Shown here: one piece after another, positions 44,933 to 50,806 of the stretch
Layout: every line of letters starts with the position of its first letter
Numbering within the stretch: the first letter of the stretch is position 1
DNA from: an uncultured Chloroflexia bacterium
GTDB lineage: Bacteria > Chloroflexota > Anaerolineae > CG2-30-64-16
Assembly (NCBI GenBank): GCA_963774265.1
Contig: CAVZDU010000001.1
Coordinates: 288,001-352,000, forward strand
Reading direction: 5' to 3'
Length of the DNA: 64,000 bases
Notes under the pieces: model-generated
Told to the model about the DNA's origin: nothing
The model's input: only the letters and a program-made list of their open reading frames with translations
Databases searched by the model: none
Made by a program: the position numbers and the translations under genes

Positions 44933-46420
44933 TTGCGCGTTCTCTTCGTCTCCCAGGAAGTCAGCTACGAACCACACGGCATCATGTTCCTGTCGGCCGT
45001 GCTGAAGCAGGCAGGTCATGATGTGGCCCTGACCGTGGCTAGACATCGAGGATCCGGTCGCGTACGCGTTGGAGTATCAGCCCGATATCCTGGGCTACAG
45101 CGTGATGACCGGTTCGCAGCGCGGCTACTTCGACCTGAACCTGCGCATCCGGCAGGCAGTCAATCCGTTGCGCGAGTCGGCAGGCAAGAAACCGGTTTTC
45201 TCGGTCTTCGGTGGGCCGCACCCGACCTTCTTTCCCGAAACGATCAACGAGCCCGGCGTCGACGGCGTCTGCATCGGCGAGGGCGAAGGTGCGATGGTCG
45301 ATCTGGCCAACGCGTTAGCGTCGCGCAACGGCGCATTCAATACCGACATTCCCAATTGGTGGTTCAACGTCGAGGGCGAGATCGTCAAAAATCCGCCGCG
45401 GCCGCTGATCCACGAGTTGTCCGCCTTGCCGCACCCCGATCGCGCGCTGATCTACGAAGGCCCACCCATATCACGGCGAGAGCAAGATCAAGTACTTCAT
45501 GACCTCGCGCGGCTGCCCCTATGCGTGCACTTATTGCTTCAATCACGCCTACTACCAGCTTTACAAGCGGGAGAAACGCGGCTACCAACGGGATGTCGAT
45601 GACCTCATTGCGGAGGTGAACGCTGTTCGCAGCCGATGGCCGCTGGAGCAGGTGGTCTTCATCGATGACCTGATCGATCGTCTACAACGATTGGCTGGAG
45701 GAATTCGCCGAGAAATGGTCCGCCCAGGTCGGGCTGCCTTTCTTCTGCAATGTGCGCGCCGATCTTGCTTGTGCAGTGACCCACACAAGGTGGAGCTGCT
45801 GAAAAAGGCGGGCTGCCGCCACCGTAAGCATGGGTATCGAGGCCGCAAACGATCGCATTCGCGTCGACTTGCTCAAGCGCCGTATGACCCGCGAGGACAT
45901 CGTCGACTGTGGCCGCATGGTTCGCGCGGCCGGCATTCACATTCACGGCAACCAACATTCTGGGCATGCCCAACCAGCACGCTCGAAGAATGATCTGGAC
46001 ACGATGCGGCTCAATGCGGCCAGCGCGGGTCAGCTACGCGCATGGCTGGTCTGTTTCAACCATATCCTGGGACTGAGCTGGGCCAGTACACCGAAGACCA
46101 CCACTTGATGGCCGGCACGCTGGATGACATCGGCGAGGTGGCATGGGATCACTCGATCCTCGTGTTCCCCAGCGACGACGACAGGCGACAACGAGAGCAT
46201 TTACAGCGGCTCTTCGCCTTGGGCGTCGAGTTTCCGTGGCTTGAGGGCCTCATTTGCAGCTTGATCAAGCTGCCGCACAACAAGCCGGTAGATACGCTAT
46301 TCTGGTGGTTCCATAAGCTGCACAAGGGATTTGCGATCTATTTTCGCGTGCTATCCCTTCCGGCCCGGGCCGATCGAGCTGGTTAAGACAGCACTTCACT
46401 TCATGAGAATCAAGTCCTGA
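44933..46420 (+). CDS. Cobalamin-dependent radical SAM enzyme 1 (frameshifts)
   Basis: B12-binding N-terminus (GGPHPT, GEGE), [25 protein letters not shown]. Confidence 0.87.
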
Positions 46421-46425
46421 TTGGC

Positions 46426-46460
46426 GATTGCAGATTCAGGATTGAAGATTGAAGATTCGG
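46426..46460 (+). repeat. Five degenerate GATTNNN heptamers in the rSAM1-rSAM2 spacer
   Basis: GATTGCA GATTCAG GATTGAA GATTGAA GATTCGG. Confidence 0.6.
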
Positions 46461-46485
46461 TCTGCAAATCCACACGGAGGTTCCG

Positions 46486-47989: not shown

Positions 47990-48019
47990 GAATAATGTCA
48001 TCCAAGGAGTCAACGCGTA

Positions 48020-49361
48020 ATGCCCATTCGCAAGATCGTACTCATCCAGCCCCGCCGCGACGGCCGCTTCCTGGGCCGCGGCATCAGCGAGCCATATACT
48101 CTCATGCGCCTGGCCTCTCTCGTCGATCCCCAGATCCCGGTCGAAATCTGGGACGGCGATCTGATGGAACTGCCCGTGCACCAGCTTGGCCCCCAGGACC
48201 TGGTCGGAATCAGCGCAAAGACGGTCATGATCGACCGCGCCAAGGTCGTTGGCCGCGAGGATCCAAAAGCAAGGGTCCACGGTCGTCATGGGCGGCACCC
48301 ACGTCACCCTGGTCCCGGATGAAGTCGAGGCCTGGGCGGATGTGATCGTCGTCGGCGAAGGCTATCGCACCTGGCCGAAGATCATCCGTGATTTCGACCG
48401 CGGCACGCTCCAGAAACGCTATGTGGATGAAGAGTGGGCGCCGTCTGGATTCCGGGCGTGGCTGTGCTGCAAGATCGCGTCCTGCAGCAGGTCGACGAAC
48501 ACCGCAACTACTGGACGCCCTACCTGGAAATCACCCGCGGCTGCCCGCGCAATTGCACCTTCTGCACCGCCGTCCGCGTATCGGGCCAGAAGATGCGCCT
48601 GCGCCCGGTCGACGAGGTCGTCGAGGAGATCGAGCGCCGCAAGCTGCAGCGCTTCTTCCTGACCGATGACAACTTCGGTCTGAATTTCCGGCTCTTCCCG
48701 GAGTACATGGAGCAGCTCTTCCGCGCGCTGGCCAAGCTGCCGCTCAAGGGCTGGACCTGCCAGGCCGAGCAGATGGTCGCAGAGTTCCCCGACATGCTGG
48801 ATCTCGCGCGGGAGGCTCACCTGGACAAGTTCCTCATCGGTTTCGAGTCGATCAACCCGGGCAACCGCAAGGAACTGGGCGGCAAGGGCCGCGGCGATAT
48901 CGACAAGACCCGCCAGGTGATCAAGAAAGTGCACGAACATGGCATCGGCGTTGTGGGCCTGTTTGTGTTCGGCTTCGACAGCGACACCCTGGAGACGTTC
49001 GATGCGGGCTATGATTTCATCCGCTCGTCCGAACTGGACGGCGTCAGTGCAACCGTTCTCACGCCATTTCCGGGCACGGCGCAGCGGGAAACCCTGCTGG
49101 CGGCCGGACGCATCCTCCCGCACGATACGTGGGAGCACTACGACACCAACCATGTCACCTTCCAACCCGCCCAGATGACGGTCGAGCAACTCACGGCGGC
49201 CTACGATCGTCTGTGCCGAGCGCATCTACCACCCGACGCTCATGGCCGGGCGCGGCTGGGGCGCGTTGCGGCGCCATCCCGTGAACAAGATGGGGGCGCG
49301 TCTCTTCTCCAGCTTCAGCACCGACATCGGCTACCGCCGGGAATACAGCCACCGGTTATAG
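48020..49361 (+). CDS. Cobalamin-dependent radical SAM enzyme 3 (frameshifts)
   Basis: VVMGGTHVT, GEG, ITRGCPRNCTFC, TDDNF, IGFES, FVFGFDSD, TPFPGT. Confidence 0.88.
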
Positions 49362-49379
49362 TTAGAAGCGAGTATTATC

Positions 49380-50806
49380 ATGAGAGTATTACTGGCCAGT
49401 CCCGAGTCCGAGGTCTGGACCTCCCGCAAGCATATCCCGCTGGGGCTGGGCTACCTGGCCGCGGTGCTGCGCGAGAACGGGCATCCAGTGGGCATCTACG
49501 ACTGCGGCCATCGAGGACGAGCCGCTGGAGACCGTGGTGCGCCGCGGCGGCTACGAGCTGCTCGGCATCACCGCGGTCACGCCGCTGATCGTCGACGCGT
49601 GGAACATGGCGAAGGAAGGCAAGCGGCTGGGGCTGACCACCGTGCTGGGCGGCCCGCACCTGACGCTGATGCCGGAGGAATCGATCAGCGCCGGAGCATC
49701 CCGAGGTGGACTACGTCATCCAGGGCGAGGCCGAAGAGAGCGTCGTCGAGTTCGTGGATGCCCTGGAAGGCCGGCCGCGCCATGGAGACGGTGCACGGCC
49801 TGTACTGGCGCAAGGAACGGCGAGATGGTCGTCAACGCGCCGTCGCGGCCTGGTCCCGAACCTGGACAGCATCCCCTACCCGGCGCACGACCTGTACAAG
49901 ATCACCCGCTACACCAATCTGCAGCCGCTCACCGATGGGCTGGACACCAAAGCGCGGGCCTACACGATCATGACCAGCCGCGGCTGCCCGTACAAGTGCA
50001 CCTACTGCTCCAAGCCGATCACCGGCGACACCTGGCGGCCCGCTCGGTGGAGAACGTCATCGGCGAGTGGCGCTGGCTGGTGCAGCGACCTGAAGGCCAC
50101 CGAGATCGGCCTGACCGACGACATCTGGAACCTGAAGCTGGATCGGGCCAAGGAGCTGTGCCGGCGCATCGATCGCCGAGGGGCTGAACACCGTGCCCTG
50201 GGTCACCGTCCACGGCATGAAGGTCAACCACGCCGACCCGGAGCTGTTCCAGCTGATGAAGCAGGCCGGCTGCAAGCGCGTCGGCTTCGGCGTGGAGAGC
50301 GGCGACGCAACACATCCTGCGCAACGTGATCAAGAAGAGCCAGACGCTCGACATGGTGCGCAACGCGTTCCGCTGGGCCAAGGAGGCCGGCCTGCAGACG
50401 ATGGGCTTCTTCATCTTCGGCATGCCGCAGGAGACCGAAGAGACGCATGGAGAAGACCATCCAGTTCGCGCTGGAGCTGGACCCCGACCTGGCGAACTTC
50501 ATGCTCGCCACGCCGTATCCCGGCACCGAGATGTACGACGTGATCAAGAAGTACGGCAACATCTTCGCCAACGAGTGGGAGGACTACGCCATCCAGTCGG
50601 ACAAGGCGCGCTTCACCATGCCCGATTACGACCCAGACCTGGTCGTGCGGAAGTGGAAAGAGGCCTATCGGCGCTTCTACCTCTACCGGCCGAAGCGGGT
50701 GTGGCAGAAGGTGTCGAAGAAGAGCTTCTGGACCGAGCTGCCCACGACCCTGGCCAACGCCAAACGGTTCTTCGTGCCCGAGAAGGCGCCGGCGAAGGCC
50801 GCGTAG
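49380..50806 (+). CDS. Cobalamin-dependent radical SAM enzyme 4 (paralog of enzyme 2; frameshifts)
   Basis: [51 protein letters not shown]. Confidence 0.88.

Follow-up and report, generated by a model that had tools for sequence, protein, structure and literature searches.

The four radical S-adenosylmethionine (SAM) genes lying in a row at positions 44,933 to 50,806 of a 64,000-nt stretch of DNA from an uncultured Chloroflexia bacterium (the whole stretch is called the window below) very probably constitute a real, conserved and co-functioning cassette of uncharacterised enzyme subfamilies. Comparison with related loci indicates that this quartet, g1 to g4, is the reduced form (g1-g2-g3-g4) of a bigger cassette. 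As to its function, our preferred reading is the stepwise radical modification of a protein or peptide, a best guess to which, stated jointly with the existence of the conserved cassette, we assign a probability of roughly 0.4. The enzyme class is known, the subfamilies are uncharacterised, and no description of such a cassette was found in the full-text literature, a scope that left subscription papers and bioRxiv supplements outside; within it, the proposal of an undescribed system made in the initial annotation of this DNA stands.

Pfam searches of reading-frame fragments placed a PF02310 B12-binding domain followed by a PF04055 Radical_SAM domain four times in series on the + strand, and the translations contain one CxxxCxxC motif per gene, as the initial annotation had described for four tandem genes with a B12-type N terminus. 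PF02310 scored 44.3, 33.1, 21.5 and 23.9 bits on the window fragments of g1, g2, g3 and g4, respectively (cut-off 32.1), and 59.7, 58.1 and 73.4 bits on the intact orthologues of g1, g2 and g4 in a related locus (L009), where the g3 orthologue scored 25.1 bits, below the cut-off. PF04055 was present in all four genes, the fragments of g4 falling below the cut-off and its L009 orthologue reaching 76.5 bits. The enzymes thus share with class B radical SAM enzymes the N-terminal Rossmann-type B12-binding domain (PF02310 in g1, g2 and g4, sub-cut-off in g3) and a partial TIM barrel with the CxxxCxxC core (g1-g4), and differ in the sub-cut-off B12 match of g3 and in that none of the four received a subfamily assignment. 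The genes g2 and g4 are paralogues: in locus L043, where the set is intact, they share 43% identity over 500 residues, and the motifs originally quoted for them are present in the translations; every other pair is 22-34% identical, in keeping with the earlier placement of g1 and g3 in other sub-types.

The four enzymes fall into no curated family, a point on which the initial annotation had made its proposal depend: none of the intact L009 orthologues, with which the NCBIfam tests were made, reached any curated cut-off, and the window fragments were likewise left unnamed by NCBIfam. The best models were BchE for g1 (96 bits) and g3 (74), HpnJ for g2 (205) and g4 (199), and ApyD (202) for gX, an additional enzyme of the bigger cassette. 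The nearest solved structure by sequence was the aminoglycoside 1,2-diol dehydratase AprD4 for g4 (PDB 6FD2, 103 bits) and g1 (64 bits), and PDB entry 9CCB for g3 (50.8 bits). AprD4 was also the top Foldseek match of the g3 model, a mediocre prediction (predicted local distance difference test, pLDDT, 71.9; poor around the cluster loop) that matched AprD4, TsrM, MgmA, MiaB, TokK, OxsB and CysS at template modelling scores of about 0.4; these predicted likenesses only restate the superfamily. Unlike AprD4 itself, the cassette enzymes score at most 119 bits with the AprD4 model NF033070 (cut-off 500) and are not accompanied by aminoglycoside genes. According to an excerpt of PMC12931638, AprD4 and ArsL do not bind cobalamin though they lie in the same similarity network. 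AprD4 being kin of g1 and g4, the label "cobalamin-dependent" is something that we infer, from the domain match only. In the ESM Atlas, g3 has look-alike clusters with generic names only, in Chloroflexota, Thermodesulfobacteriota and Pseudomonadota.

The largest g3 fragment, used as a query, retrieved a highly conserved family of about 446 aa carrying generic names only. An alignment of 15 of its members was then used to scan 185,579 species genomes, which yielded 368 relatives; the loci analysed below are the best 80 of these 368, with up to 10 kb on each side. All titled records among the 80 are metagenome-assembled genomes (MAGs) or Candidatus genomes of Chloroflexota, labelled Anaerolineae, Caldilineae, Caldilineales, Ardenticatenaceae, some Dehalococcoidia, and Ca. 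Amarolinea. Orthologues were called by tblastn with the window fragments at 60% identity or more (55% for g1). The g3 family is 60-96% identical across the 80 loci, and g2 orthologues are 71-97% identical in their C-terminal part.

Co-location of the quartet in related genomes, which had been named beforehand as a check, is frequent. A g4 orthologue occurs no more than 2.5 kb downstream of g3 in 38/70 loci (those with at least 2 kb downstream), and a g2 orthologue no more than 6 kb from g3 in 34/60 (those with at least 6 kb upstream). Among the 53 loci that could be evaluated on both sides, g3 is accompanied by both g2 and g4 in 33, by g2 only in 5, by g4 only in one and by neither in 14. Where 8 kb or more of upstream sequence is available, g1 has an orthologue in 15/57 loci; the complete quartet is found together in 17/80 loci, and the close g2-g3 spacing seen in the window is shared by 10. 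In a quick maximum-likelihood tree of 85 g3 proteins, the clade that holds the closest relatives of the window (L001-L004) comprises 32 rows, and g2 or g4 stands alongside in 30 of these, while the solitary g3 copies belong mostly to another clade. Two g3 copies stand in tandem in six loci (L006, L008, L010, L014, L032 and L068), at 67-81% identity to the window g3 fragment, and the second copies fall in tree clades other than those of the first. A Rosetta-stone search for fusions returned six proteins of at least 782 aa and 27-36% identity, mostly tandem B12-type doublets, and no close relative.

In many related loci the quartet is part of a larger assembly. Its full form, seen cleanly in L043, reads rtcB, g1, g2, gX, SPASM1, g3, g4, gY, c43, c34, SPASM2, in which gX and gY are a fifth and a sixth B12-type enzyme (gX shares about 33% identity with g2, and 19 copies of gY are 71-96% identical to one another), SPASM1 and SPASM2 are radical SAM enzymes that carry a SPASM domain, and c34, a protein that is acidic and some 100 residues long, has no Pfam match. 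By tblastn, SPASM1 occurs in 35 of the 80 loci, gY in 31, c43 in 28, SPASM2 in 24 and c34 in 12. In 28 of the 31 loci with gY, c43 comes immediately after it, and the module gY-c43-c34-radical SAM/SPASM lies at L043:11659-15169, and also in L007, L026, L047 and others.

The protein encoded by c43 is exactly 68 aa long in 26/28 copies, the other two (56 and 176 aa) coming from assemblies that are seemingly frameshifted at this point. It has no Pfam match and 2432 relatives in a large protein collection; among the matches listed, 115/120 are 68 aa long, and the names given are all "hypothetical protein". The structure predicted for it, with confidence (pLDDT 84.5), is a small alpha/beta fold whose N-terminal tail is disordered but invariant, and a PDB search with this model gave no structural match at E <= 0.001. 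A predicted complex of gY with c43 scored 0.61, as compared with 0.00 for the best control; this mark is reached by 116/157 solved complexes and 2/215 mismatched pairs, a calibration that is rough here owing to the custom alignments. The gY-c43 runs had at least 83% of their contacts in common, with a partner pLDDT of at least 79, and gY residues 212, 214 and 219-220, neighbours of the cluster cysteines C209, C213 and C216, are among the predicted contacts. These models place c43 against the active-site face of gY, over the iron-sulphur loop. The c43 interface is enriched in invariant positions (11/19 residues versus 12/49 others; Fisher p = 0.011).

The related loci point to a protein or peptide substrate rather than to the housekeeping lipid, cofactor or RNA first proposed, in that the expanded cassette adds two SPASM enzymes and a conserved 68-aa protein predicted to bind gY. 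The leads in this direction are the presence of the SPASM enzymes, the pairing of gY with c43, and the resemblance of g3 to MgmA and of gX to ApyD. MgmA is entry 9CCB, the glutamine C-methylase of methyl-coenzyme M reductase (MCR), a B12-type enzyme that acts on a protein (PMC11796369, in excerpt). Against its likeness to g3 as the nearest solved structure stand a TIGR04014 (MgmA/QCMT) score of 66 bits versus a cut-off of 360, the bacterial hosts, and the lack of any MCR match in the gene scans of the window and the loci. TIGR04014 scores for the individual enzymes were 122 for gX, 106.8 for g4, 68.9 for g2, 65.8 for g3 and 60.0 for g1; the C-methyltransferase model of peptides that are made on ribosomes and modified after translation (RiPPs), TIGR03975 (cut-off 281.85), gave 116.6, 115.4, 77.3 and 47.1 for gX, g4, g2 and g1, and the ApyD model NF050148 (cut-off 750) gave 201.8, 139.1 and 123.8 for gX, g4 and g2.

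Under the preferred reading of protein or peptide modification, each enzyme would use a [4Fe-4S] cluster and SAM to generate a 5'-deoxyadenosyl radical, which would take hydrogen from a carbon that is not activated; provided that cobalamin is bound, a methyl group would then come from methyl-cobalamin. Paralogous and non-paralogous enzymes may act in turn on different positions of one common substrate, which in the expanded cassette would be c43 itself, and in the reduced cassette of the window a target encoded elsewhere. This chemistry, taken over from what is known of the family, would be ordinary for the class.

Several observations weigh against this reading. The genes gX, gY, c43, c34 and those of the SPASM enzymes were not found in the 64 kb of the window, nor were c43, gY, c34 or SPASM genes found in the stretches examined of the close relatives L001, L002 and L004, which means that the four-gene core functions with none of them close by. 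When orthologues are called at 60% identity, g3 occurs without g2 or g4 in 14/53 loci, although the 14 include two loci, L054 and L069, in which g2-like and g4-like genes are present at 44-58% identity. Even in its intact orthologue, g3 does not reach the Pfam cut-off for the B12 domain. The likenesses to characterised enzymes are all remote (MgmA at 51 bits with g3; AprD4 for g1 and g4), and the best curated family of g2 and g4, HpnJ, acts on a lipid. Sequential action is something that we infer solely from co-location. Finally, the complex model speaks for likely binding, not catalysis, and c43, conserved over its whole length and fixed in size, would suit the part of a subunit or lid no less well than that of a substrate.

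The tailoring of membrane lipids, in which the enzymes would methylate, cyclise or cross-link the alkyl or polyprenyl chains of a Chloroflexota lipid, as HpnJ, HpnP and HpnR do with hopanoids and GrsAB and Gmm with tetraethers, is unlikely, with clues in both directions. HpnJ, the hopanoid-associated radical SAM enzyme, gives g2 and g4 their highest-scoring curated match, with a near full-length alignment, yet its scores (205.4 for g2, 199.4 for g4, 189.7 for gX, 84.7 for g1 and 72.0 for g3) amount at best to about one third of the TIGR03471 equivalog cut-off of 577.6, and no shc or hpn gene is present in the window or the annotated loci. The ladderane-type lipid model TIGR04072 (cut-off 360) gave no more than 137.0 (gX; g4 126.0, g2 96.3, g3 68.2, g1 62.9), and the Tes model 33 bits for SPASM1. 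Lipid-modifying radical SAM enzymes are a growing class that includes Tes, Mss, Gms, GrsA/B, Gmm, Cds, HpnH/J/P/R, Jaw5 and the ladderane enzymes (PMC13459092, a 2026 review, in excerpt), and the portion consulted of a Black Sea study reports homologues of Tes, Mss and ElbD in Chloroflexota, with GrsA hits missing from them (PMC11868695). A compact cassette without a substrate gene is also what would be expected for a bulk cell component.

The neighbours of solitary g3 copies bear on the same question. In L040 (11354-12376) and L063, the gene directly downstream of g3 belongs to a family whose L040 representative matches LPG_synthase_TM; ORF families that are PMT_2/TMEM260-like glycosyltransferases or PTPS-related occur near solitary g3 in L031, L040, L046, L060 and L063 (the domain matches resting on the L040 or L031 family representatives), and a GT87 family gene does so in L052 and L064. 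These membrane and envelope-glycosylation neighbours are a weak hint at a membrane-linked role for the solitary g3 clade. They mostly concern a g3 clade other than the window's, and the census of the 80 loci revealed no conserved lipid-synthesis neighbour among the ORF families whose representatives were scanned.

We regard the decoration of a tetrapyrrole, pterin or cobamide-type cofactor as rather improbable. BchE is the best curated family for g1 and g3, SPASM1 is nearest to the tungsten-cofactor oxidoreductase maturase (105 bits, cut-off 380) and to NirJ1, AhbC and AhbD (63-65 bits), as compared with 48 for the mycofactocin maturase and 38 for PqqE, and the window has a moaA gene and an IscA-like carrier gene upstream of the quartet, as do 16/80 and 13 loci, respectively. 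All of these scores are far under the cut-offs, BchE (TIGR02026, cut-off 481.35) giving 184.2 for g4, 183.4 for gX, 155.2 for g2, 96.0 for g1 and 73.7 for g3, and BzaD at most 117 versus 450. The moaA gene passes the equivalog cut-off for ordinary molybdopterin synthesis and therefore needs no special explanation. Furthermore, Rfam gave no match in the window at the gathering score, in 40800-51200 at E <= 1, or in the eight loci scanned, and no cobalamin, molybdenum cofactor or other riboswitch was found there.

A new protein-derived product, with c43 as the scaffold or substrate, the four window genes as the conserved core of the pathway and the scaffold encoded elsewhere in the genome, seems to us similarly improbable. 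As many as six or seven B12-type radical SAM enzymes, together with two SPASM enzymes, would work step by step on the invariant disordered N-terminal tail of c43 or on its invariant C terminus, and would thereby yield a peptide cofactor or modified protein, heavily C-methylated or cross-linked, that is peculiar to Anaerolineae-type Chloroflexota. Radical SAM/SPASM systems that work on peptide scaffolds include PqqA/D/E and MftA/B/C, and RiPP clusters with multiple methylases are exemplified by the polytheonamide cluster Poy. The expanded cassette resembles such systems in having c43, c34 and SPASM2 side by side together with several B12-type enzymes; unlike them, it has c43 and c34 outside any Pfam family, and c43 is a folded protein of 68 aa, while the window is without the module.

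There is a slim chance that no pathway is shared, and that unrelated enzymes stand side by side through inherited gene order only. The synteny of the close relatives extends upstream through a sufR-like gene, moaA, an iscA-like gene and rtcB, and in L009 downstream through an M1 peptidase gene, gatCA, UDPGP and an aminotransferase gene; co-location is therefore in part plain shared ancestry, and the low count of g1 (just 15/57) points the same way. Eight loci (L039, L049, L055, L066, L070, L075, L076 and L077) have a rearranged order in which g3 is followed by a g2-like gene, with a g4-like gene further along in six of them. In a group of six loci (L039, L055, L066, L070, L075 and L076) the order is g3, g2-like, gY, g4-like and the flanks are also changed, to genes for an aldehyde dehydrogenase and a metallophosphoesterase upstream and nuo genes downstream. 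The radical SAM genes nevertheless stay together, which speaks for a link in function and not just in inherited order, and the cassette is composed almost only of radical SAM genes.

The position of rtcB raises the possibility, a very slim one, that the quartet modifies tRNA or rRNA and is co-expressed with RtcB in a coupling to RNA repair. The start of g1 lies 12 bp past the rtcB stop codon, rtcB is found no more than 1.2 kb upstream of the first B12-type gene in 21/42 evaluable loci, and the g3 model also resembles the folds of MiaB and RimO. These two matches are weaker than those to AprD4, TsrM and MgmA, and rtcB is absent from this position in the other 21/42 loci; we know of no B12-domain radical SAM enzyme that acts on RNA. 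In six loci (L008, at 825-3836, L015, L020, L021, L057 and L065) rtcB itself contains an interruption of some 1.5 kb, so that the ORFs reach about 1005 aa and match RtcB at both ends, an arrangement that looks like an intein.

None of g1 to g4 is an intact ORF in the window assembly: no long + strand ORF is listed at 44.9-50.8 kb, and in three-frame translation the enzyme sequence switches between frames. We counted insertions and deletions (indels) against L001, an Anaerolineales MAG and the nearest relative found, which aligns with the window over 36.5-55.9 kb at 84-86% nucleotide identity. The 5697 coding bases of g1-g4 contain 35 indel events (33 single-base insertions and two deletions): 12 single-base frameshifting insertions and one insertion/deletion pair in g1, seven frameshifting insertions in g2, four in g3, and nine insertions and one deletion in g4. 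In the flanking coding sequence, aligned at the same identity (trkA, metG, the regulator gene, moaA, the iscA-like gene, rtcB and the M1 peptidase gene; 36462-44920 and 54706-55939), there are five in 7823 bases, that is, 0.64/kb as compared with 6.1/kb in the quartet (binomial p = 3.5e-9). The inserted bases are mostly outside homopolymers, about 6/33 adjoining an identical base in the alignment. A frame-plot of G+C content at third codon positions (GC3) showed 14 phase switches in 44-52 kb versus 1-6 per 4 kb elsewhere, though this plot is blunt, GC3 (0.75) being too near GC1 (0.69) for a sharp map.

The frameshifts proved repairable, as the initial annotation had assumed: once the inserted bases are skipped there is no premature stop, and dN/dS relative to L001, calculated for g1, g2, g4 and flanking genes, is 0.075 for g1 (493 codons, no stop), 0.078 for g2 and 0.101 for g4 (473 codons, no stop), as compared with 0.123 for metG, 0.138 for moaA, 0.121 for rtcB and 0.108 for the M1 peptidase gene. 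The low dN/dS and the lack of premature stops indicate that these are live genes, not pseudogenes, and on this comparison of sequences g1-g4 are functional genes under purifying selection. Most likely the roughly 33 frameshifts are assembly or consensus errors. Housekeeping genes elsewhere in the window are also split by one or two frameshifts each, namely metG (39964), rtcB (44236), gatA (57345-58866), gatB (61499-62955), gidB (30599-31748) and an amino-acid permease gene (34613-36226), so that there is an assembly-wide background of indel errors. In exactly g1-g4 the insertions are about ten times as dense as in the flanking genes. The same kind of frame slip is seen in a g3 homologue of another public assembly (P0117, 639 aa, SPASM plus g3-like), which, considered as a fusion, was ruled out as a read-through from frame slips. 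That the quartet consists of decaying pseudogenes with real frameshifts is hardly tenable: the indel excess and the loss of gX, SPASM1, gY, c43 and SPASM2 from the locus in the window's lineage would fit it, but dN/dS is equal to or below that of the flanking housekeeping genes, natural gene decay favours deletions where 33/35 events here are single-base insertions, mostly at non-homopolymer sites, and the essential genes metG, gatA, gatB and rtcB are frameshifted too, as is P0117 elsewhere.

The features of the locus are collected in Table 1, in which the bounds of g1-g4 are drawn from three-frame translations, the alignment to L001 and the gene-junction sequences.

Table 1. Coordinates of the quartet and of the associated features in the window.
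Feature	Position	Strand	Description
g1	44933-46420	+	B12-domain radical SAM enzyme, subfamily 1, about 490 aa if intact
g2	46486-47925	+	B12-domain radical SAM enzyme, subfamily 2, paralogue of g4
g3	48020-49361	+	Radical SAM enzyme, subfamily 3, weak B12-domain match, 446 aa if intact
g4	49380-50806	+	B12-domain radical SAM enzyme, subfamily 2', paralogue of g2
Promoter-like site	41257..41285	+	TTGACA, 17-nt spacer, TATGAT; 11/12 matches, TG extension; upstream of regulator gene
ArsR-family, SufR-like regulator	41364..42023	+	HTH_20, HTH_5; SufR_cyano 71.5 bits, below cut-off 178.8
moaA (GTP 3',8-cyclase), radical SAM	42020..43036	+	TIGR02666 380.9 bits (cut-off 284)
IscA/HesB-like Fe-S cluster carrier	43046..43417	+	PF01521 66.5 bits
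rtcB (RNA 3'-phosphate ligase)	43462..44920	+	PF01139 in two pieces; one inserted base at 44236
Intrinsic-terminator-like hairpin	50855..50882	+	12-pair stem, 7 G-C, 4-nt loop, T-rich tail

The gaps within the quartet had been given as 18-65 bp, which holds for g1/g2 (65 bp) and g3/g4 (18 bp); the g2/g3 gap is 94 bp. The start codon of g2 is TTG, with GGAGG 6 nt upstream. A single terminator closing the quartet, as originally described, is borne out by the hairpin of Table 1, which comes from a scan that found 16 terminator-like sites in the region, as compared with 6.8 +/- 2.4 in shuffles. The domain scans (Pfam and NCBIfam) also agreed with the earlier statement that no gene for a precursor peptide, polyketide synthase or nonribosomal peptide synthetase, or transporter, and no bch or hpn gene, adjoins the quartet: none was found. 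No precursor peptide exists in the window, where the gaps are 12-94 bp; in the expanded cassettes the 68-aa protein adjoins gY.

The quartet had been treated as self-contained, and this view had to be given up: besides being the reduced form of a bigger cassette, it continues the string of sufR-like gene, moaA, iscA-like gene and rtcB, with which it probably forms one unit. The SufR-like regulator gene is likewise upstream in L001, L004, L009, L023, L028 and L042. In the window moaA is intact, with zero indels against L001; the IscA-like ORF family, of which one representative was domain-scanned, has its members between moaA and rtcB wherever both are present. Judged by its sequence, the promoter-like site is a possible start of this long transcription unit and a lead only, there being two sites of such quality in the region versus 2.3 expected in shuffles.

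Downstream of the quartet lie a 388-aa ORF, small toxin-antitoxin-like genes and, on the opposite strand, the M1 peptidase gene. About 3.9 kb of this region (50807-54705) is missing from L001, where the M1 peptidase gene directly follows g4. The 388-aa ORF (50909-52072) has no Pfam or NCBIfam match, and its Atlas look-alikes are all "hypothetical"; the small genes match HTH_3, PIN_3, DUF2442, DUF4160 and MazE-like families. As L009 has a RelE/ParE-type pair at the matching position, the site has the look of a hot spot at which small mobile modules gather. Between trkA and metG, a DDE transposase gene (37996-39225; DDE_Tnp_1, DUF772) lies within 37794-39452; trkA and metG are adjacent in L001, which indicates the insertion of an insertion sequence in the window's lineage.

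Among the reactions that biology performs, those of B12-type radical SAM enzymes rank with the most difficult, and for most subfamilies of these enzymes no function is known. Here, four to six well-conserved subfamilies of this kind (g3 at 60-96% identity across 80 species-level genomes, gY at 71-96%) are gathered in one cassette of a host group that is abundant yet poorly cultured and lives in digesters, sediments and groundwater. The local indel errors mean that automatic annotation of this assembly will overlook g1-g4. The outcome of the analysis is a parts list, two clean reference loci (L009, with the compact form plus gX and SPASM1, and L043, with the full form) and a candidate protein partner, c43. 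If the product were a lipid, the cassette would be a possible source of a biomarker; if it were a protein-derived cofactor, this would be a new class.

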